A DNA stretch of 64,000 bases from assembly GCA_036405175.1 (NCBI GenBank), contig DASWYC010000002.1:57892-121891 (forward strand). Reading direction: 5' to 3'. Made by a program: the position numbers and the translations under genes. This document shows, in pieces, positions 7,987 through 32,811 of this stretch (its first letter is position 1; each line of letters opens with the position of its first letter). Below the pieces are notes generated by a model. The model made no database searches. It was not told the DNA's origin and saw nothing but the letters and a program-made list of their open reading frames with translations. Source of the stretch: Minisyncoccota bacterium. Lineage in GTDB: Bacteria > Patescibacteriota > Minisyncoccia > Phycocordibacterales > UBA1006.

Positions 7987-8014
7987 TTGACTTGCTGGAG
8001 AGTTGGAGTATATT
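7987..8014 (+). promoter_or_regulatory. sigma70-like promoter: TTGACT, 16-nt spacer, TATATT
   Basis: Hexamers seen directly. It overlaps the first ATG of the next ORF, so that gene may start at a downstream Met (M16, around 8048). Confidence 0.35.
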
Positions 8015-8353
8015 TTTGATAAGTTATTAATTAAAAATATAGGCCCAATGATAGCGTTGTTGAATTTAACCCTGAGTTTTAGTATATTAGATCTTTTAAA
8101 AAAAGACTTTCGCTTTAACTTTACAAAAGGTAAGTATTGGTTCTGTAAACCGATTCATTCAAAAAGTTCCTATTATATTATAGGAATAGTAAAAATAAAT
8201 CCGGACTCATTTATTCCAGAATCAATTACTATTGGTATTTCGGATAGCCAAGATGGCGAACCAGAAAAAGATGTTCATGAATGTCGTTCACTTGAAGAAT
8301 TTGAAGTAATGAGAAAAAAATTAAAAGAAAGGTATCTATTAGAAAAGGCGTGA
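8003..8353 (+). CDS. hypothetical protein
   Basis: 116-aa ORF followed by a terminator. Start uncertain. Confidence 0.3.
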   Translation: MEYIFDKLLIKNIGPMIALLNLTLSFSILDLLKKDFRFNFTKGKYWFCKPIHSKSSYYIIGIVKINPDSFIPESITIGISDSQDGEPEKDVHECRSLEEFEVMRKKLKERYLLEKA

Positions 8354-8372
8354 TGAGAAATCACGCCTTTTA
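8344..8372. terminator. hairpin terminator (AAGGCGTGAT / ATCACGCCTT) between convergent genes
   Basis: Seen directly. Confidence 0.55.
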
Positions 8373-8382
8373 ACATATCTTG

Positions 8383-8856
8383 TTATTTCTTTACTTCAGC
8401 TGCGGGTCTGATAGAAACATTGGTTGCAGAAATACTTCCATCTGCATTTGGTGTTCCCATTACCATAACTTCTTCACCAACTTTCAAGTCAGTAATTGTT
8501 CCTGCTGCACTCTTTGAAACGGTGGTTGAAGGACTGATCATAATAATCTTTGATCCGGTCTCCCCCATTTGAACCGTAATACTTGTTGCATCAACAGAAA
8601 GAATCTTTCCCATTGCAGCATTGCCTCCAGCACGGCGCATCATGCCGCCTTGTGCACCGGCAACAAAGTTGCCACCCATGCCCATGCCAAAACCAGTATT
8701 ACCTCGTTGGCCTGCACGCATGGTGCCCATTTCACCACGCATAGCTCCACGCATTTTTGAATGAGCAACTTTAGTTCCAATAAAGAAGGCAAGCATAATC
8801 AAAATAACTGCGCCAATAATCATGCCGGTAAAACTTGTTCGTGAAAATGTATACAT
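8383..8856 (-). CDS. small membrane-anchored Gly/Met-rich protein; its C-terminal beta-rich module is paralogous to 12379..12873 (possibly DUF5666-like)
   Basis: N-terminal TM helix, then GMGMGG and MRGAMRGEMG low-complexity region. C-terminal ITDLKVGEEVMVMGTPNADGSISATNVSIRP aligns with PEDIKVDSVIVVIGEPSEDGTIAAKLIRILP of the other protein. Confidence 0.45.
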   Translation of the reverse strand: MYTFSRTSFTGMIIGAVILIMLAFFIGTKVAHSKMRGAMRGEMGTMRAGQRGNTGFGMGMGGNFVAGAQGGMMRRAGGNAAMGKILSVDATSITVQMGETGSKIIMISPSTTVSKSAAGTITDLKVGEEVMVMGTPNADGSISATNVSIRPAAEVKK

Positions 8857-8884
8857 AATAATTTATTTAAATAATAATGAGCAA

Positions 8885-10105
8885 CTACTCGTACCGTAGC
8901 GCTTCAATTGGATTTAGCTTAGCAGCACGCTGTGCGGGATAATATCCAAAGATAACACCAATTGCCGTTGAAACACCAAAGGCAAGCAGAATCGAACCAA
9001 ATGAAACATTCGTCTGAAGAATGCCCAGCTTGGTTACGGCAAACGAAACTGCCCAGCCAAATGCCACGCCGATCACGCCGCCGGTAAAGGTGAGCATGAC
9101 TGACTCAATTAAGAACTGGAGACTAATATCTGATCGTTTAGCACCGATTGCTTTGCGGAGTCCAATCTCGCGTGTACGTTCGGTAACCGTGGTGAGCATC
9201 ATATTCATGATGCCAATACCCCCAACCAGTAATGAGATTCCTGCAACGGCTGCTAAGAGTGTGGTGAATGTTCCAGTCACGCTTGATGCGGTTGCAATAA
9301 TATCTGATTGGTTGAGGGTTGAAAAATCTGCTGCGGATGGATCAGAAATCTTGTGGCGTGTGAGCAGGAGATTGGTAACGTCATTTTGCACTTGAGTAGT
9401 TATTTCAGAGTTTTCTGCAGAAATATCAATTTCGCTCAAGAACTTATTCCCGGTTAAATAATGTTGTGCAACAGTGTAGGGGACATAAATCGTATCATCA
9501 GCATTAGAAAATCCAGACCCCCCTTTGCTTGCGGTGATTCCAATAATTCTAAAGGTGATACCATTGATGCGAATACTTTCTCCTAATGGTTCTGGGTTTT
9601 CTGGAAAAAGATCTTCTGCTGTGGTTGGTCCAATTACGGCAACTTTTGATGCACTATTTACATGAGCATCGCTAAAGAAAGTTCCCGTTGCAACTGACAC
9701 ATTGCGCACGGCAGTGTAGCTTGGGGTGGTGCCAATAATACTCGTGTTAGTATTGGTTCCTTTTGCAATGACTTGTTGGCGAGAAGAAACAACAAATGCA
9801 ATACTACCAATGTTTTCAACTTGGTTTTCAATCGCTTCGCCATCTTCTACGGTAAGTGATTGACCGCCACCACGTCCTGCGCTTGGTCCACCAAAACTAC
9901 GCTGAGCACCAGGCATAATCATAATGAGATTTGATCCAATAGATTGAATACTTGATTCAATAGATTTCTGTGCACCTGCACCAATTGCCGTCATTGCAAT
10001 CACCGAGCTAATACCAATAATCACACCAAGCATGGTAAGTCCGGTGCGGACTTTATTGGCCATCAGTGATGAGTATGTTTCGTGGAGAATATCTTGCGTA
10101 GTCAT
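8885..10105 (-). CDS. ABC transporter permease, MacB/FtsX family
   Basis: N-terminal TM helix, large periplasmic domain, C-terminal FtsX-like 3-TM bundle. Start reassigned to MTTQD (ATG at 10105..10103), 1 nt after the ATPase stop. Confidence 0.75.
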   Translation of the reverse strand: MTTQDILHETYSSLMANKVRTGLTMLGVIIGISSVIAMTAIGAGAQKSIESSIQSIGSNLIMIMPGAQRSFGGPSAGRGGGQSLTVEDGEAIENQVENIGSIAFVVSSRQQVIAKGTNTNTSIIGTTPSYTAVRNVSVATGTFFSDAHVNSASKVAVIGPTTAEDLFPENPEPLGESIRINGITFRIIGITASKGGSGFSNADDTIYVPYTVAQHYLTGNKFLSEIDISAENSEITTQVQNDVTNLLLTRHKISDPSAADFSTLNQSDIIATASSVTGTFTTLLAAVAGISLLVGGIGIMNMMLTTVTERTREIGLRKAIGAKRSDISLQFLIESVMLTFTGGVIGVAFGWAVSFAVTKLGILQTNVSFGSILLAFGVSTAIGVIFGYYPAQRAAKLNPIEALRYE

Positions 10106-10106
10106 A

Positions 10107-10802
10107 TTATTTCTTATGATGATTTTTGTGATCACTGACAATGAGTCCGTCACGAATGGTAATAATTCTGTCTGCATATGCAGCAATCTCAGGTTCGTGG
10201 GTAATCAAAACAATCGTGCGACCAAGTTCTCTATTTAACTTTTGGAACGTTGCTAATACAATTTCTCCCGTTTTAGTATCAAGGTTTCCGGTAGGTTCGT
10301 CGGCAAGAATAATGGTGGGATCATTCACGAGTGCGCGGGCAATTGCAACACGTTGAATCTGTCCTCCGGATAGTTGATTTGATTTGTGTAGTAGGTGAGA
10401 GTCATTGAAGCCTGCAGATTTGAGTGCCGCTTTTGCTTTTTTCTGGCGCTCTTCTTCATTCATGTGTGCATACACAAGTGGCAGCTCAACATTTCTTAAT
10501 ACGGTAGTACGGGGAAGTAAATTAAATGCCTGAAAAACAAATCCAATATGAGTACGACGAATATCCGCTAATTCATCATCAGAAAGCTTTGAAACATCTT
10601 TACCATTCAAAAAGTACTTTCCATGCGTTGGCGTATCAAGTGCGCCAAGGATATGCATCAAGGTAGACTTTCCAGAACCACTTGGCCCGACAATAGCAAC
10701 AAATTCGCCATCAGGAATTTCAAAACTCACTCCTTTAAGTGCCTTAAATTCATTCTCACTTCCTGAAGAATATGTTTTGGTAACATCTTTAACTTCAATC
10801 AT
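10107..10802 (-). CDS. ABC transporter ATP-binding protein (MacB/LolD-type)
   Basis: Walker A GPSGSGKST, signature LSGGQIQRVAIARAL, Walker B ILADEPTGNLD. Confidence 0.85.
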   Translation of the reverse strand: MIEVKDVTKTYSSGSENEFKALKGVSFEIPDGEFVAIVGPSGSGKSTLMHILGALDTPTHGKYFLNGKDVSKLSDDELADIRRTHIGFVFQAFNLLPRTTVLRNVELPLVYAHMNEEERQKKAKAALKSAGFNDSHLLHKSNQLSGGQIQRVAIARALVNDPTIILADEPTGNLDTKTGEIVLATFQKLNRELGRTIVLITHEPEIAAYADRIITIRDGLIVSDHKNHHKK

Positions 10803-10811
10803 ATGAGTATA

Positions 10812-12374
10812 TTAGCGAGTGAATGTTCGCATGGTTGGTGTTGCACCCATGCCGCCGGCACGCACTGCACCACCACGCGTAGATCCGCCAACACTGTTAA
10901 GGATGCTTGGTGCTTGCGTAGATGACTGTTTGGTATTGCTGGTTGTCATGCTGCGTACCACAATACTTTCGCCTTCGGTAAGTCCTTCAACAATTTCTGT
11001 ATTGGTGTCATCAGAAATTCCAATAGTTACAGGTAGCTGCTTTGGTGCAGGATCGGTTGCGCTGGTTGCTTGAAGGACATAGGATGCATTTCCATCAGTT
11101 TTAACTGCAGCAATTGGCACCAGAACTACATCTTGGCGAACGTCGGTTGCAATTGTTGCAGACACGCTCATACCAGATTTAATACGCGCATCGGTGGTAT
11201 CAAAAGCAATCTTAACGTTGTAGTTCACCACACCTTGTGACACCGTTCCGAGCGTATCAACTTGAATGATCTTTCCAGTAACCGTAAGCTCATCAATTGC
11301 ATCAAATGTCATCGTTGCTTTTTGTCCAACCGCAACCTTTGCAGCATCAATTTCATTAAATGGAATAATGGCAACTTGTTGGTTGGTAATAATGGTTCCA
11401 AGTGCCGTTCCTGATCCAACTTGTTGTCCAACAATAACATCGGTGCTTGCAAGAGTTCCGGTAAGGGGTGCCTTCACATAGTACTTAGCAAGATTTTGCT
11501 GAGCATCAAACACGCTATTCTTTGCCTGTTGAAGTGAAAGTTGCTTTTGTTGGAGTTCAATCTCGTTAGTACCTTTTACTGTGGTTGCTTCTTTCAAGTC
11601 TTGAACAGCGTTTTCATAGGCATTTAAATTGCTTACATAGCTAGAGCTATTTTTATTAGGAATGGTAATGGTCCACGTTTGATTTTCATTTACGGTGGCT
11701 GGAAACTTGATAAAGAGTCCAGAAGCTCCTAGTGGTTGAGCTGTTGTAGTATTTACGGTGCCAATACCATTTGCTAGACCCGACATATTAAATGAGTATC
11801 CAGCATCAGTTTTATAGGTAGTAAGGGTAATAGTTCCTTCAGACCCGAGCGTATAGTTTCCAGAAATAGTAGGAGCTGTTGCATTCAAGTTGCGGTCACC
11901 TGGCATAGCTTCAAGCTGAGAGCTCAAGAGTGTTGAATATGCACGATCAACAGCTTTCTTTAAATCAGCGGTTGAGTTTTGCGAGCTATTAATGTAGCTA
12001 TCATATGAAAGCTGCGCAGACTGCAAACTAATTTGCGCATCACGCAAGCTTTTTTGTGCATCGGTACTTTTAATCACAAATAAAGTTTTTCCTTTGGTAA
12101 CCTTGTCGCCGGGTTTTGCATAGATGGCAATGAGTTCTCCTGACGCTTCTGGATTAATATCGAGTGAATTAGAGTTGGAAACTTGTCCGGTTCCAGAAAC
12201 AGTTGAAATAATCGTTCCTTTTTCCGCAGTTCCAAGCATATAGGTAGTTGCCTCTGCTTCTTTATGTGACGCGCGTACGATTAAAACTACTCCCACAATA
12301 ACAATAATAAGAGCGATGATGCTGCGTACTTTATGTGTGCGAATGTATTTGATAGTTTTAGAAAAGATAGACAT
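10812..12374 (-). CDS. HlyD/MacA-family periplasmic adaptor subunit with a long S/T-rich insertion
   Basis: N-terminal TM helix, coiled-coil, beta-barrel and MP domains. Start reassigned to MSIFSKTIKY (ATG at 12374). Confidence 0.7.
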   Translation of the reverse strand: MSIFSKTIKYIRTHKVRSIIALIIVIVGVVLIVRASHKEAEATTYMLGTAEKGTIISTVSGTGQVSNSNSLDINPEASGELIAIYAKPGDKVTKGKTLFVIKSTDAQKSLRDAQISLQSAQLSYDSYINSSQNSTADLKKAVDRAYSTLLSSQLEAMPGDRNLNATAPTISGNYTLGSEGTITLTTYKTDAGYSFNMSGLANGIGTVNTTTAQPLGASGLFIKFPATVNENQTWTITIPNKNSSSYVSNLNAYENAVQDLKEATTVKGTNEIELQQKQLSLQQAKNSVFDAQQNLAKYYVKAPLTGTLASTDVIVGQQVGSGTALGTIITNQQVAIIPFNEIDAAKVAVGQKATMTFDAIDELTVTGKIIQVDTLGTVSQGVVNYNVKIAFDTTDARIKSGMSVSATIATDVRQDVVLVPIAAVKTDGNASYVLQATSATDPAPKQLPVTIGISDDTNTEIVEGLTEGESIVVRSMTTSNTKQSSTQAPSILNSVGGSTRGGAVRAGGMGATPTMRTFTR

Positions 12375-12378
12375 ATAA

Positions 12379-12873
12379 TTATTGGAGTGCCTCTGGGCGA
12401 GGGAGAATACGAATAAGTTTTGCGGCAATGGTTCCATCTTCCGACGGTTCGCCAATTACTACAATGACTGAGTCAACCTTGATATCTTCTGGTTTTCCAT
12501 CGTCACGCATATTTTTAATACTCGTAGTGTTAGAGATTGTGATAACTTTCTCAGTATTATCGCGGTCTTCAACGGTAATATTAGGAAGGTCTACGGCCAG
12601 TACGCGTCCCATAGTTCCGTGCGTATTGGGGAACTCATTACGGATAATTACCATCTTCCCACCACGAGGACCTGGGCGTGGTCCAAAGTTCTGAATGTAG
12701 TTATTGTGCCACGATTGCCCAAATGATGCCTTACGGAATCCATACGCTGCTCCCATACGGAAGATTGCAATAAAAATAATTCCAAAGATGATTATGGCAA
12801 TCACGCATTGGAAAATACGGTTGGTAAATATGCGATCAACTTTTTGAAGAAATTCAGAGTTGTGTGAGTTCAT
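12379..12873 (-). CDS. small membrane-anchored protein, paralog of 8383..8856 (possibly DUF5666-like)
   Basis: TM helix, GPRPGPRGG low-complexity region and shared C-terminal module. Confidence 0.45.
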   Translation of the reverse strand: MNSHNSEFLQKVDRIFTNRIFQCVIAIIIFGIIFIAIFRMGAAYGFRKASFGQSWHNNYIQNFGPRPGPRGGKMVIIRNEFPNTHGTMGRVLAVDLPNITVEDRDNTEKVITISNTTSIKNMRDDGKPEDIKVDSVIVVIGEPSEDGTIAAKLIRILPRPEALQ

Positions 12874-12876
12874 ATA

Positions 12877-13272
12877 TTATTGAATTGCGAGAGATGAATA
12901 ATGAGAGAGTCGAAGCGACTTTTTAAGTGACCATGCAAAGCTGAACGTTGCCATAATCACCAAGATGATACTTGCAAGCGGAAGGCTTTCAAGAAGAATT
13001 ATGCCAAGATCTTTTAGAACATTCACGAGGGCACCACTTGATAATGCAAGCGAAAGATATTGATATAGTCCGCTTGATGCTGTTTGGATAACCAAATGTA
13101 TGATGGCAGCAAGGGTTCCGATTCCAGAAGCCCACATAAGTCTTTTATACAGTAGCGCTGATCCAGATGATTGTTGGACAGAATAAATACTTTGTTTAAT
13201 GCGTTCAGCTAAGCCATGAGGTGTTGAGATCTCTGATTGCAACAGTGTTCGCAATGTACGATGGTTATTCAT
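12877..13272 (-). CDS. putative membrane anti-sigma factor (assigned by position only)
   Basis: 131 aa, immediately downstream of the ECF sigma gene, about 45-aa cytoplasmic N-terminus followed by TM segments. No zinc anti-sigma motif. Confidence 0.3.
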   Translation of the reverse strand: MNNHRTLRTLLQSEISTPHGLAERIKQSIYSVQQSSGSALLYKRLMWASGIGTLAAIIHLVIQTASSGLYQYLSLALSSGALVNVLKDLGIILLESLPLASIILVIMATFSFAWSLKKSLRLSHYSSLAIQ

Positions 13273-13310
13273 ATACTATCTATACGTATAAGAATTAAGT
13301 TTTGGTGCAG

Positions 13311-13862
13311 CTATTGATTGAGTTCTTGCTTAAGTTTGCTGAGCGCACGATGGTGCCAACTTTTTACCGTGTTCATAGGGGTTTCTAAAACGTCACTAAT
13401 TTCTTGAAAGGTAAGTTCTTGTTGATAGTGAAGGATGAGTACAGATTTGTAATTGATTGGAAGATTGTTAAGATGATTTTCAAGAAACACTGAATCAAAT
13501 TGCTGATCAAGAATATCAACCACAGAAGTATGATCGCTGGGAAGTGAAGATTCAAAATCTTGATCATTAGATGAAAGTTGAGAAAAGGTGAATGATTTCT
13601 TTTTACGAAGATGATCCGTTGCAGTGTTGCGTGCAATAGTAAAGAGCCATGCTCTAAAACTTTGTGCGGAGTTGTATTGTGTAAACCGTTGCCACATTTT
13701 AATGAATGTTTCTTGGGTGGCGTCTTCCGCAAGTGCGGCATCATTACTTATGCGATAAATAAAGTTGTAGAGCGGGACAGTGTAGCGTTCAATTAATATA
13801 TTGAGCGCCTGAGAATCTTTAAGAAGAATTTTTTCTACGAGTGCGGTATCCGAAAGTTCCAT
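13311..13862 (-). CDS. RNA polymerase ECF-type sigma factor (sigma-70 regions 2 and 4)
   Basis: Region 2 FIKMWQRF...FRAWLFTIARNTATDHLRKK and a C-terminal region-4 HTH. Confidence 0.8.
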   Translation of the reverse strand: MELSDTALVEKILLKDSQALNILIERYTVPLYNFIYRISNDAALAEDATQETFIKMWQRFTQYNSAQSFRAWLFTIARNTATDHLRKKKSFTFSQLSSNDQDFESSLPSDHTSVVDILDQQFDSVFLENHLNNLPINYKSVLILHYQQELTFQEISDVLETPMNTVKSWHHRALSKLKQELNQ

Positions 13863-14061
13863 AGGTACACTCTATCATGATGATCAGAAAATAAAGAAGC
13901 AAAAAGTATTTTGTTATGAAATAACTTCATGAAGTGTCAATGATGTGGAAAATGATTTTTTGGATATACTAATCAAGACGAAGAAATTTTTCTTTAGAAA
14001 GATTTTTTAGCAAATTTACAATTTTATATCAAGTTTCACTATTAAACCAATCGTTTCTACA

Positions 14062-14211
14062 ATGGACAAGACATTTTTCCATGCGAGCCAAAATTTGGCA
14101 GCTCAAACAAACTCAACTCCTGATTCCATGAACGCAAGAACCAATATTAAAGACGTAGGAAAAGCAGCTGGTTTTGATAATTGTATGACTTTCGGTGCCG
14201 GCAGCTTCTAA
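14062..14211 (+). CDS. small ORF A (49 aa, MDKTFFHASQNLAAQTNSTPDSMNARTNIKDVGKAAGFDNCMTFGAGSF), paralog of ORF B
   Basis: Preceded by a conserved 17-bp motif plus TATACT and a conserved leader; followed by its own terminator. No signal peptide. Confidence 0.3.
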   Translation: MDKTFFHASQNLAAQTNSTPDSMNARTNIKDVGKAAGFDNCMTFGAGSF

Positions 14212-14236
14212 GCGAAATAAACTGAAGCTCAACCAA

Positions 14237-14278
14237 AAAACTGTTTTATCATTTTATCGATAAAACAGTTTTTATTTT
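14237..14278 (+). terminator. rho-independent terminator (AAAACTGTTTTATC / GATAAAACAGTTTT + T-tract)
   Basis: Perfect 14-bp inverted repeat. Confidence 0.6.
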
Positions 14279-14490
14279 GCTAAAGTTTTCAAAAGATAGA
14301 TGACAATAGAATAAGTAAAGAGCGGAGTTGTATATATTATTACAGCATACTCTAGTAGTATGTCAATAATGTGGAAAAAGGGAACGCAAGTATACTTGAA
14401 AGGAAGATGAAATTCTGATTGAAAAAACAGAAATTCAAGCTTGTTTATAATTTCATATCCAATTTTCACCATTAAACTAATATTTTAGTT

Positions 14491-14631
14491 ATGCCAAAAT
14501 CAAATCTTGCAAGCCAATCATTGGCAGCTTACAAAAAAACCGTACAATTCTTCCATGCCAAAGATATTAATGCCTCTTATGAAGATGCTGGTGGCCTTAT
14601 CGAAGACAGAGTGAGTTCCTATCGTGACTAA
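14491..14631 (+). CDS. small ORF B (46 aa, MPKSNLASQSLAAYKKTVQFFHAKDINASYEDAGGLIEDRVSSYRD), paralog of ORF A
   Basis: Shares the FFHA and SQxLAA motifs and the upstream leader with ORF A. Confidence 0.3.
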   Translation: MPKSNLASQSLAAYKKTVQFFHAKDINASYEDAGGLIEDRVSSYRD

Positions 14632-14653
14632 TTTAAGCGCCCGTCCGTAGTTG

Positions 14654-14696
14654 CCTACTATTCAAATGTCAAATGAATAGTAGGTATTTTATTTTC
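14654..14696 (+). terminator. rho-independent terminator (CCTACTATTCA / TGAATAGTAGG + T-tract)
   Basis: Perfect 11-bp inverted repeat. Confidence 0.6.
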
Positions 14697-14761
14697 TGAG
14701 AAAAAAGTTATCAAAACAAAAACCACTCAATCACTTGAGCGGCTTTTTAATTTCTTAATTT

Positions 14762-32277: not shown

Positions 32278-32811
32278 ATGTTTGCATTCTTGCTTGATCC
32301 CCTCGTAAATTCTGGAATTACCAAAGGAGTTTTTGGGCTTTTGACCAATAACGGCTTAATTGGTTTTGCGTCACTATTAACATTTCTTGGTTTGATGGCA
32401 ATTGGATATTCATATATTCGTATTAAAGAAATTAAAAAAGAAGAAGATGAGAAGTGGACAAACTTTTTTGTACGCAAATATGAGACACAGCAGGCTCAGC
32501 CATCGCGATGGGAGACTATTCGAGGACTTTTTCTTTCTGATGCAGAAGAGAAGTGGCGTTTGGCGATTATTGAAGCTGATTCGTTAATTGAAGAATTATT
32601 ACGTGCAAAAGGCGTGCCAGGTGCAACATTTGCTGACATGCTAAAAGCTAATCCGCCATTTCTTGCGCCCGTGATTCAGCAGGTATGGGGAGTGCATATT
32701 ATGCGTAATCGTATTGCTCATGAAGGGCTTATGTTTAAGGTTGATCGACGATTAGCAAATCATGCGTATCAGGTGTACGAGGCTGCAGTGAATATGATTC
32801 AGGCAGCGTAG
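32278..32811 (+). CDS. membrane-anchored protein with C-terminal HEPN-like (DUF4145-like) domain
   Basis: Two N-terminal TM helices. C-terminal helical domain with an Rx4H motif (RNRIAHEG). Confidence 0.35.
   Translation: MFAFLLDPLVNSGITKGVFGLLTNNGLIGFASLLTFLGLMAIGYSYIRIKEIKKEEDEKWTNFFVRKYETQQAQPSRWETIRGLFLSDAEEKWRLAIIEADSLIEELLRAKGVPGATFADMLKANPPFLAPVIQQVWGVHIMRNRIAHEGLMFKVDRRLANHAYQVYEAAVNMIQAA

Follow-up and report, generated by a model that had tools for sequence, protein, structure and literature searches.

What might an ECF sigma factor, a MacB-type exporter and two small membrane-anchored proteins do when they are encoded side by side in a member of the Candidatus Paceibacterota (CPR/Patescibacteria)? 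The question is raised by a cassette of seven co-directional genes in a 64-kb stretch of such a genome (hereafter, the window), the source of which bears out the CPR origin proposed by the first-pass annotation. Most likely, the ECF (stress-type) sigma factor switches on a membrane export pump together with two small tethered helper proteins, and the cassette functions as an inducible envelope-defence or export pump. Our best explanation as a whole, i.e. a two-module regulatory and export cassette that inducibly protects the single membrane, is one to which we attach somewhat more belief than doubt; within it, we infer both the substrate class and the identity of the anti-sigma factor.

The open reading frames and their translations revealed all seven genes on the minus strand of the window, at the coordinates originally claimed; all features described below are located on that strand. 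In the direction of transcription, the order is ECF sigma, a membrane protein with two hydrophobic segments (2-TM protein), smallA, the adaptor (membrane-fusion protein, MFP), an ABC ATPase, a MacB permease, and smallB, and the intervening spacers are 38, 3, 4, 9, 1, and 28 nt long, respectively. The range of 1-30 nt given previously holds for five spacers (1-28 nt), but not for the 38-nt spacer between the sigma and 2-TM genes. The genes form two modules, i.e. sigma, 2-TM protein and smallA on the one hand and MFP, ABC ATPase, MacB permease and smallB on the other. The cassette probably comprises two transcription units rather than a single operon. It ends with an intrinsic terminator (8338..8370), an 11-bp GC-rich hairpin (8344-8370) followed by UUUUCU, which has a fold energy of -17.1 kcal/mol (z -5.7); 0 of 200 shuffled sequences folded as well.

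To estimate conservation, 80 loci were fetched with an adaptor profile, out of at least 589 confirmed stretches, and all 80 stem from Patescibacteria. The following counts are based on the 64 untruncated loci among them. The complete cassette is present in 44 of the 64, so that most of these ultra-small relatives keep it as a unit. Its gene order is contiguous as in the window in 39 loci (including L058), and in the other five all seven genes are found with the sigma gene displaced by 3-5 kb upstream. The genes flanking the cassette vary from locus to locus. The 2-TM protein, which co-occurs with sigma and smallA, was found together with smallA in 49/64 loci, and both were missed in 15/64. Sigma, the 2-TM protein and smallA are all absent from 10/64 loci, and five of these ten retain smallB. 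In one relative, L002, the same pump genes lie downstream of a gene for a MarR-family regulator; such an arrangement is typical of efflux pumps and favours that reading.

The first gene (13311..13862) encodes an ECF (group 4) sigma-70 family factor of 183 aa, with Pfam matches to Sigma70_r2 (E 3.5e-20) and Sigma70_r4_2 (E 3.5e-12) and a score of 109.8 bits for TIGR02937 (sigma70-ECF; cut-off 42.9); none of the named NCBIfam equivalogs reached its own cut-off. An extended -10 promoter-like element, TGATAGAGT (13869..13877), was read 6 nt upstream of its ATG. Among 54 related loci, 25 have the corresponding pattern TGnTAnnnT at a distance of 4-9 nt from the start codon of the sigma gene, on its upstream side, compared to 0.6 expected from shuffles. 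The element predicts transcription by the housekeeping sigma factor into a leaderless sigma mRNA, and the gene would be transcribed alone.

A different, ECF-type motif, TGCACCAAA-N14-CGTAT (13282..13309), occupies the sigma/2-TM spacer, and its CGTATA ends 8 nt before the ATG at 13272. It is the single perfect copy in the whole window. Of 60 related loci, 52 have GCACC-N16/17-CGTA in the same place, whereas about 10 chance matches were obtained in 1.23 Mb of shuffled sequence. Across loci the consensus is TGCACCAAAa-N13-CGTATa, and both the internal spacing and the position relative to the start codon are fixed (7-11 nt from CGTA to the start codon in 40/53 loci). This short distance suggests that the 2-TM transcript is probably leaderless, or nearly so, from its predicted start. 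In the loci with a displaced sigma gene the motif remains with the 2-TM gene, and additional copies are found at interruptions of the operon: L021 has them before both MacB and smallB, whereas L030, L053, and L056 have one before smallB. In L001, L006, L007, and L021, the motif also precedes a divergent gene for a secreted repeat protein. Sigma control, which had been guessed from gene order, thereby gains in silico support.

The 2-TM protein (131 aa, 12877..13272) is a candidate anti-sigma factor by virtue of its gene position. Family alignment and hydropathy revealed an N-terminal cytoplasmic segment of ~40 aa and two hydrophobic segments, with a conserved QSGFYxYxSLxFS...WKE...ESLP between them. 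Searches of Pfam, NCBIfam and PDB sequences gave no match, including none to a known anti-sigma domain; this lack of detectable similarity and the short cytoplasmic part count against the anti-sigma role.

The third gene, smallA (164 aa, 12379..12873), is predicted to encode an N-terminal TM helix, a disordered linker and a C-terminal OB-fold domain, and it matches DUF5666 below the Pfam threshold (E 0.0087). Its TM helix runs on into a conserved juxtamembrane helix, GFRKASFGxxWxxNYxxNFG. The last gene, smallB (157 aa, 8383..8856), has a TM anchor, a Gly-rich linker (median Gly 26%) and a C-terminal DUF5666 domain (E 4.2e-7, 30.6 bits, cut-off 27), which by paralogy with smallA would also be an OB fold. 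The two proteins are 35% identical over 95 aa (BLASTP, E 6e-14), and hhalign gave a profile-profile probability of 98.7% (E 2e-16 over 127 columns). On these sequence comparisons they are true paralogs with a common C-terminal domain well beyond chance, as had been proposed, and the predicted fold of one of them adds to the HMM and profile evidence. With a domain shared by the small proteins and a cassette conserved among relatives, neither of the results that the first-pass annotation had named as speaking against it was obtained.

The Pfam and NCBIfam matches of the cassette's proteins agree with the family assignments made before. The ABC ATPase (231 aa, 10107..10802) is a separate polypeptide of the MacB/LolD/FtsE type (ABC_tran, E 4.6e-36) with Walker A GPSGSGKST, signature LSGGQ and Walker B ILADEP, and its best NCBIfam alignments are with the N-terminal half of MacB and with LolD. 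The permease (406 aa, 8885..10105, starting at an internal ATG of the ORF 8885-10186) is of the MacB type (type VII ABC), in which TM1 and TM2 flank an extracytoplasmic core domain. It matches MacB_PCD (E 1.7e-47, residues 21-245) and FtsX (E 6.9e-23, residues 286-399) and aligns with residues 256-646 of E. coli MacB in NCBIfam. The adaptor (520 aa, 10812..12374, starting at an internal ATG of the ORF 10812-12455) is YknX/MacA-like and has an N-terminal TM anchor. Pfam identified HlyD_D23 and HlyD_3, and the score for TIGR01730 (RND_mfp) is 126 bits (cut-off 94.9). Precomputed Pfam matches of its homologues include Beta-barrel_YknX and, for many, also YknX_C and BSH_YknX. The adaptor ends in a Gly/Arg-rich low-complexity tail (10815..10943; family consensus APSLLGGxGGxxxGGxGxxR) with a composition similar to that of the smallB linker.

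The family profile of the adaptor aligns with the MacA structures 4dk0 and 5nik over the lipoyl, beta-barrel and membrane-proximal parts, but profile positions 137-258 have no MacA counterpart; the tip, residues 95-110, is found there in MacA. For residues 100-305, AF2 predicts a helix (103-150), seven strands (156-238, pLDDT 94-97) and a second helix (246-296), i.e. an alpha-hairpin with a confidently predicted beta module (residues ~151-245, 11640..11924) at its tip. Its conserved residues include G172, Y187, G219, L220, F224, W234, and P239, and Foldseek found no match in the PDB at E<=1e-3. The family alignment, the comparison with the MacA structures and AF2 agree on ~95-110 aa, so that the earlier estimate of about 200 aa is too high, and the "unusual" S/T richness amounts to a mild enrichment (27%), given that the whole adaptor already has 22%. 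All 82 family members analysed carry a tip module, 34 of them the beta module and 48 an unrelated helical one, and the two types are mutually exclusive.

For comparison, we considered known systems with related components. Bacillus YknWXYZ belongs to the sigma-W regulon. Like the cassette, it operates in a single-membrane organism, combines the TM-anchored adaptor YknX with the MacB-type permease YknZ and an ATPase, YknY, on a polypeptide of its own, has a small accessory membrane protein encoded alongside, and is under ECF sigma control from a promoter with a CGTA-type -10; moreover, YknX-specific Pfam models match the adaptor family. It requires its adaptor and the small accessory membrane protein, and it protects against the SDP peptide (PMC4887032). 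In contrast, the cassette has no Yip1-family YknW homologue detectable with Pfam and two TM-anchored OB-fold (DUF5666) paralogs instead, it encodes the sigma factor and its partner proteins itself, and its adaptor has the 95-110-aa tip module and the Gly/Arg-rich tail.

The best mechanistic template for the pump is Spr0693-0694-0695, in which ATPase and permease are likewise split and the three core components are the same. In the model for Streptococcus pneumoniae, a hexamer of Spr0693 builds a nanotube that reaches from the membrane as far as the peptidoglycan, and the pump makes the cells resistant to the antimicrobial peptide LL-37; the hairpin tip is only a flexible loop of ~22 residues (PMC5768738), in contrast to the folded module predicted here. 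That system has neither a sigma module nor OB-fold accessories, and the Spr0693-type structure 5xu0 matches the adaptor profile weakly (E 3.5e-7). With models for YknX and Spr0693 (PMC4887032, PMC5768738), the role of a MacA adaptor in a single-membrane cell is less unclear than had been stated. The MacAB-TolC systems of E. coli and Aggregatibacter share the MacB fold and domain order (MacB_PCD and FtsX) as well as the adaptor domain order (best PDB sequence matches 4dk0, 4dk1, and 5nik). However, an outer membrane is not expected in this lineage, Pfam found no TolC-like gene in the cassette, ATPase and permease are separate polypeptides, and the inserted module replaces the TolC-docking hairpin tip of MacA.

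For the regulatory module, Cupriavidus CnrYXH-CnrCBA and NccYXH represent three-component ECF signalling beside an adaptor-containing efflux pump. They combine an ECF sigma factor, a very small TM anti-sigma factor with a short cytoplasmic domain and a small anchored extracytoplasmic sensor, encoded beside the pump that they control. Pfam, NCBIfam and PDB sequence searches detected no similarity of the cassette proteins to Cnr/Ncc proteins. In addition, the pump is of the ABC/MacB type and not RND, the candidate sensor is an OB fold without conserved metal ligands, and the gene order differs, with the sigma gene outside the sigma-dependent unit. If smallB hands substrate over to the pump, a plausible model for it is CusF of CusCFBA, a small OB-fold accessory encoded in the operon of an adaptor-containing pump. 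CusF itself is a soluble protein that binds Cu/Ag via conserved Met and His (plus Trp), whereas in smallB a Gly-rich linker ties the domain to a TM helix, and the domain lacks conserved Met, His, and Cys.

Together, these features would be compatible with the following mechanism. The 2-TM protein would keep sigma inactive at the membrane, and smallA, tethered on the outer face, may be its signal-receiving partner, if CnrYXH and other three-component ECF systems are taken as a guide. Freed sigma would use the ECF-type promoter to produce a leaderless polycistronic mRNA from the 2-TM gene through smallB, and synthesis of the 2-TM protein from this mRNA would provide negative feedback. The pump itself would belong to the MacB-type ABC machines (type VII, mechanotransmission) and, like YknYZ and Spr0694-0695, have its ATPase on a polypeptide of its own. 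The substrate would be picked up from the outer leaflet or the extracytoplasmic face, and ATP-driven motion of the extracytoplasmic domain of the permease would push it into a tube of TM-anchored adaptors, which presumably oligomerise, running from the membrane out to the wall zone. The tip module would sit where Gram-negative adaptors dock TolC, and therefore its most likely role is contact with the wall or surface layer, or gating of the exit. SmallB may be a tethered accessory that captures substrate and passes it on, or one that helps to assemble the pump.

The strongest alternative, which we nevertheless regard as rather unlikely, is a housekeeping machine that exports or assembles an endogenous envelope or surface component, e.g. 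a lipid, glycolipid, lipoprotein-like molecule, surface-layer or adhesion factor, analogous to DevBCA (glycolipid export) or LolCDE. Sigma would then tune the exporter to the state of the envelope and not to toxins, and the interchangeable tip modules would fit the conduit to differing wall or surface architectures or to host contact. The very wide conservation of the cassette in reduced genomes, the universal and mutually exclusive tip modules and the motif before the secreted repeat protein are consistent with this alternative. In L025, moreover, glycosyltransferase-, PAP2-, DedA-, and hydrolase-like genes are embedded in the cassette between the sigma and 2-TM genes, and such envelope-biogenesis-like genes in some relatives fit a broader envelope programme better than simple detoxification. 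Partial NCBIfam matches include the DevB and DevA families, but the DevB, DevA and Lol scores are all far below the family cut-offs. Furthermore, the cassette contains no conserved candidate gene for a cargo, and both the pumps without a sigma module (10 of 64 loci) and the relative with the MarR regulator are typical of efflux.

It is improbable that the cassette is an FtsEX-like mechanotransducer without bulk transport, in which MacB domain motion acts on the OB-fold protein(s) or the adaptor tip and switches on or releases an extracytoplasmic activity, e.g. wall remodelling. The MacB-family members FtsEX and LolCDE do act in this way (PMC5768738). The two tethered extracytoplasmic proteins are conserved partners, and a substrate is not evident. 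In contrast, the cassette encodes a complete adaptor of the MacA/YknX type, including the lipoyl, barrel and membrane-proximal domains; FtsEX-type systems are not known to use such adaptors, which imply a conduit. The cassette has no conserved hydrolase gene, the FtsX and LolC/E family scores are far below the cut-off, and the MacB alignment covers the whole permease. Least probable of all, by a little, is efflux of a metal (e.g. Cu/Ag or a divalent cation) with CusF-like OB-fold metallochaperones and a CnrYXH-like sensor module, for although that three-component logic is similar, the smallB linker is Met-rich in the window genome (17%) and the adaptor weakly matches CzcB/NccB and IhpB (divalent metal exporter adaptor) in NCBIfam, the Met enrichment is lineage-specific (median 3% in 63 orthologues), family alignments revealed no invariant His, Cys or Met in either OB-domain family, and every metal-family score is far below its own cut-off.

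We thus favour the inducible, sigma-controlled export pump. Its component parts are familiar, but their conserved combination, their wiring, and the extra module on the tube of the pump appear to be undescribed. The presence of a drug or peptide pump in so many tiny genomes is somewhat unexpected and could indicate housekeeping export; physiologically, the pump most likely protects the single membrane, in an inducible manner, from membrane-active compounds, e.g. antimicrobial peptides or amphiphiles.

All seven minus-strand reading frames of the cassette appear in the ORF list at the coordinates of the first-pass annotation. Those of the adaptor and the permease begin at ATGs within somewhat longer ORFs, as had been assumed there. 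In cassette order, the seven frames encode an ECF sigma factor (13311-13862), a protein with two transmembrane segments (2-TM protein, 12877-13272), the small anchored protein smallA (12379-12873), a membrane-fusion or adaptor protein (10812-12374), an ABC ATPase nearest to the MacB/LolD/FtsE type (10107-10802), a permease (8885-10105), and the second small anchored protein, smallB (8383-8856). The intergenic spacers, read from the sequence, are 38, 3, 4, 9, 1, and 28 nt. The proposed families were borne out by Pfam and NCBIfam scans; the 2-TM protein had no match in either collection. A protein with 100% identity to the adaptor is encoded by a Candidatus Paceibacterota MAG, which confirms the suspected CPR origin. 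The cassette ends with a terminator, i.e. an 11-bp hairpin and a U-tract (8338-8370, minus strand). A 116-aa ORF on the plus strand (8003-8353) is convergent with the cassette, and its 3′ end lies inside or beside the hairpin at 8344-8370, which may therefore act bidirectionally.

The cassette is kept as a unit in relatives. The gene neighbourhoods of three distant adaptor homologues (40-50% identity) were tabulated. Two unrelated contexts have the seven-gene order; in the third, the pump lies downstream of a MarR regulator and of another sigma/DUF5667 pair. This third arrangement is seen in a Zambryskibacteria relative (loci L002/L003, 3644-5990), where adaptor, ATPase, and permease genes follow the gene of a MarR-family regulator, another ECF sigma factor and a DUF5667 membrane protein are encoded upstream, and OB-fold proteins are absent. 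The pump core is thus paired with different regulators in different lineages. A scan with an adaptor profile, using one genome per species, yielded 80 loci among at least 589 confirmed stretches, and among the matches listed all 80 belong to Patescibacteria; the record titles include Nomura-, Adler-, Yanofsky-, Vogel-, Kaiser-, Komeili-, Doudna-, and Magasanikbacteria.

Gene contents were counted with HMMs built from three orthologue sets in the 64 loci that had enough flanking DNA. The full gene order is present in 39 of them, and five more contain all seven genes with the sigma gene 3-5 kb further upstream. The sigma factor, the 2-TM protein, and smallA are all missing from ten loci, five of which have kept smallB, and in five loci the sigma factor is present and the 2-TM protein and smallA are both absent. 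The 2-TM protein and smallA occur together in 49 loci and were both missed in 15, and therefore the cassette consists of two modules, one of sigma factor, 2-TM protein, and smallA, and one of adaptor, ATPase, permease, and smallB. An apparent fusion of the putative anti-sigma factor with smallA in one locus of the full-order group (L058) stems from erroneous ORF calling in a GC-rich genome, where the two genes are in fact separate. In five species (L025, 2043-7017, as well as L029, L038, L040, and L064), 3-5 kb of genes separate the sigma gene from the promoter and the 2-TM gene. Judged by eye from their translations, the inserted genes of L025 look like those for a DedA-like membrane protein, a GT4-type glycosyltransferase, an alpha/beta hydrolase, and a PAP2-like membrane protein, suggesting that envelope genes have been recruited beside the sigma factor.

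The sigma factor has 183 aa and contains Sigma70_r2 (residues 23-89) and Sigma70_r4_2 (residues 131-177), with a TIGR02937 score of 109.8 bits at a cut-off of 42.9; Pfam gave no match to region 3 or region 1. Judged from these matches, it is an ECF (group 4) sigma factor, having only regions sigma-2 and sigma-4 and a small size. All NCBIfam models of named ECF groups or equivalogs (SigW, SigM, SigY, and others) remained far below their cut-offs, e.g. SigW with 118 versus 209 bits, and the ECF reclassification paper mentions neither CPR lineages nor a MacB/FtsX context. In the cassettes, the sigma gene is followed by the conserved gene of the 2-TM protein. In this family, about 40 cytoplasmic residues at the N-terminus precede two hydrophobic segments, and conservation is highest in the stretch QSGFYxYxSLxFS...WKE...ESLP, located between these segments and at their edges. 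Profile searches revealed no similarity to any anti-sigma domain in Pfam, NCBIfam, or PDB. DUF3379 was rejected as an assignment, as a single member matched it with a non-significant E value of 0.061. From its position and co-occurrence, we infer that the 2-TM protein is a candidate anti-sigma factor.

When the regions before the 2-TM gene were aligned across the loci, the motif TGCACCAAAa-N13-CGTATa emerged. In the window, its version TGCACCAAA-N14-CGTAT fills the spacer between the sigma and the 2-TM genes (13282-13309) and is the sole perfect copy in 64 kb. The pattern GCACC-N16/17-CGTA precedes the 2-TM gene in 52 of 60 loci, compared to about ten matches in 1.23 Mb of shuffled sequence. 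GCACC and CGTA are separated by 17 nt in 46 loci and by 16 nt in seven, and the start codon of the 2-TM gene follows CGTA after 7-11 nt in 40 of 53 loci. In its form, the motif resembles the Bacillus sigma-W/M/X promoters, which combine a −35 element of the TGxAAC type, a spacer of 16-17 nt, and a CGTA −10 element. A cognate ECF promoter, with a −35 and a CGT-containing −10 element, is predicted in silico near the locus of the sigma factor. Where the sigma gene is displaced, the motif remains with the 2-TM gene. Additional copies are found at breaks of the operon, i.e. before the MacB permease and smallB genes in L021 and before smallB in L030, L053, and L056. A further copy (GCACC-N16/17-CGTATA) precedes the divergent gene of a secreted repeat protein in L001 (around 4492), L006 (around 691), L007 (around 6430), and L021 (around 6506). 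Its retention with the 2-TM gene, its duplication at operon breaks, and its copy before the secreted protein are as expected of a sigma-dependent promoter, and the secreted protein is probably an additional member of the regulon. The four loci are the closest relatives of the window, and their motif copy is on the opposite strand, directed away from the sigma gene. The secreted protein, which is absent from the window, has a signal peptide and repeated helical motifs (e.g. ...IKSELASGKSVQQVLADHNITM...). A loose GCACC-N16-CGTA match on the minus strand of the window at 32600-32624 (GCACCTGGCACGCCTTTTGCACGTA) has neither the AAA extension nor CGTAT and fits chance (0.27 expected per window).

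The sigma gene itself has a different promoter. An autoregulated ECF promoter upstream of it was not found in the window; a housekeeping-type extended −10 element, TGATAGAGT, is situated there and ends 6 nt before the ATG, and the ECF-type motif lies downstream. TGnTAnnnT was found 4-9 nt before the sigma start codon in 25 of 54 loci, versus 0.6 in shuffled sequences. In the window (start codons at 13862 and 13272) and in many related loci, the −10 elements are only 5-9 nt away from the start codons, leaving no room for a Shine-Dalgarno sequence. Because the −10 elements adjoin the start codons, both units are predicted to be leaderless, which suggests that leaderless translation is common for the cassette genes in Paceibacteria. 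With the sigma gene outside the unit that depends on it and the putative anti-sigma factor inside, the predicted wiring would establish a negative feedback.

The repeated element TTTTCCACAT[C/T]ATTGACA upstream of the sigma gene was considered as a sigma target and rejected, as it does not match the conserved ECF-type motif and is part of two tandem small-gene units on the other strand. These duplicated units (14062-14211 and 14491-14631, plus strand; flanks 13863-14760) diverge from the sigma gene. In both, a conserved upstream region, GTCAAT[G/A]ATGTGGAAAA ... GTATAC ... TTTA[C/T]AATTT, is followed by an ORF of 46-49 aa, with ASQxLAA as a common motif at the N-terminus, and by a separate hairpin terminator. 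The two ORFs, annotated in the source MAG as the hypothetical proteins VGE63_00550 and VGE63_00555, are singletons in a collection of 15 billion proteins and have no homologues in 83 related loci. Therefore, they are not part of the cassette, and their interpretation as pump cargo or bacteriocins was dismissed. The units are candidates for small peptides or small RNAs.

The ATPase matched ABC_tran (E 4.6e-36) and aligned best with the N-terminal half of MacB; its Walker A (GPSGSGKST), signature (LSGGQ), and Walker B (ILADEP) motifs are intact in the translation. The permease matched MacB_PCD (E 1.7e-47, residues 21-245) and FtsX (E 6.9e-23, residues 286-399) in Pfam. Its predicted layout is MacB-type (type VII), with an extracytoplasmic core between TM1 and TM2 and a subsequent C-terminal TM bundle of the FtsX type. 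The E. coli MacB equivalog (macrolide exporter, NF007826) was not recognized, with 259 and 268 bits versus a cut-off of 966, and the ATPase and permease are encoded by separate genes, in contrast to the fused E. coli MacB.

The adaptor follows the MacA/YknX-type plan with lipoyl, beta-barrel, and membrane-proximal domains and an alpha-hairpin inserted in the lipoyl domain. The first-pass annotation had described an S/T-rich insertion of about 200 aa. Profile alignment to MacA and the AF2 prediction reduce this to about 95-110 aa, sited at the hairpin tip, and the S+T content is 27%, versus 22% for the whole protein. Profile positions 137-258 are unmatched in MacA structures and face MacA residues 95-110, i.e. 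the tip. For residues 100-305 (mean pLDDT 88), AF2 predicts a helix (103-150), a seven-stranded module (156-238, pLDDT 94-97), and a second helix (246-296); in this model, a plain tip with a short TolC-docking turn or a flexible loop is absent, and the folded module takes its place. Foldseek found no solved relative of the beta module at E≤1e-3; the best matches were flagellar junction proteins, with the layout alone in common. BLAST single-linkage clustering of the tip regions was uninformative because the flanking helices link everything, and it was replaced by two module-specific HMMs. Among 82 adaptor family members, including that of the window, 34 have the beta module and 48 an unrelated helical one, and none has both or neither. 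Both types occur in sigma-linked cassettes. In Gram-negatives, the hairpin tip is the docking site for TolC. That every tip in this family bears one of two unrelated folded modules is suggestive of a specific contact or gate outside the cytoplasm.

The proposed kinship of the two small proteins was substantiated by 35% identity over 95 residues (E 6e-14) and by a profile match with 98.7% probability (hhalign), which extends over 127 columns, from the TM anchor through the linker into the C-terminal domain. With DUF5666 (PF18914, gathering cut-off 27), smallB scores above the threshold (30.6 bits) and smallA alone below it (16.8 bits). For smallA, AF2 predicts a long N-terminal helix, containing the TM segment and a conserved juxtamembrane GFRKASFGxxW, a disordered linker, and a beta-barrel with pLDDT >90. 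Its matches include B. subtilis YobA and CcmE, a membrane-anchored OB-fold chaperone, and, at E≤1e-30, 457 clusters (50% identity) among 1.84 billion representatives belong to the smallA family alone. SmallB is built likewise, and its linker is rich in Gly (median 26%). The Met content of this linker is 17% in the window versus a median of 3% in orthologues, and a metal-chaperone reading was rejected, as Met-richness is not conserved. The family alignments contain no invariant His, Cys, or Met in either OB family. The adaptor ends with a conserved Gly/Arg-rich tail (10815-10943, minus strand, ...GGSTRGGAVRAGGMGATPTMR), and this unusual Gly/Arg(/Met)-rich composition is shared with the smallB linker (8620-8760, minus strand, MRGAMRGEMGTMRAGQRG...GGMMRRAGG). 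Across orthologues of both, the Gly/Arg character is kept and the Met enrichment is not.

The cassette would most likely encode a MacB-type pump of the same kind as YknXYZ and Spr0693-0695, switched on by the ECF sigma factor. Precedents from single-membrane bacteria include a nanotube model for the adaptor, the requirement for a small accessory membrane protein, and an antimicrobial-peptide phenotype (PMC4887032, PMC5768738). YknWXYZ differs in having the Yip1-family protein YknW; no Yip1-family Pfam match was obtained for any of the seven proteins at E≤0.1. In their logic, CnrYXH is a similar three-component sigma module and CusF a similar pump-associated OB protein, both by analogy, not homology. 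The main rival explanation is a housekeeping export of an envelope component; the broad conservation and the envelope-type genes in the extended regulon are in its favour. That the complex would act as an FtsEX-like mechanotransducer or export metals is less likely.

The tethered OB-fold paralogs might conceivably act as a relay by which transcription is coupled to the activity of the pump; we regard this as a long shot. SmallB would dock on MacB and the adaptor as a working part of the pump, and smallA, via its like domain, would read the state of the pump or substrate and signal to the 2-TM protein in the membrane. The pump would be a CPR-specific conduit, with interchangeable beta or helical tips that engage the wall, a surface layer, or even a host cell. 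If true, sigma activity would track transport demand, an ECF-based counterpart of BceAB-BceS flux sensing.

All components of the cassette belong to known classes. In a limited search of the searchable literature, we found no description of the seven-gene combination, of an OB-fold family split into a regulatory and a pump paralog, of the 2-TM partner family, of a leaderless promoter architecture with the sigma gene outside its own regulon unit, or of an obligatory dimorphic hairpin-tip module; searches for DUF5666 and for CPR, ECF, and MacB together retrieved nothing relevant. The genomes of Patescibacteria are very small, with few regulators, and, to our knowledge, almost nothing is known about envelope sensing and defence in these bacteria and about their export towards a host. 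The cassette represents a concrete, widely conserved, and testable regulon, with a sigma factor, a predicted promoter of fixed leaderless geometry, a new 2-TM partner family, a tethered OB-fold family with regulatory and pump paralogs, and a MacB-type pump. It is relevant to the question of tripartite-pump adaptors in bacteria without an outer membrane, and the promoter motif already allows regulon prediction in any CPR genome.
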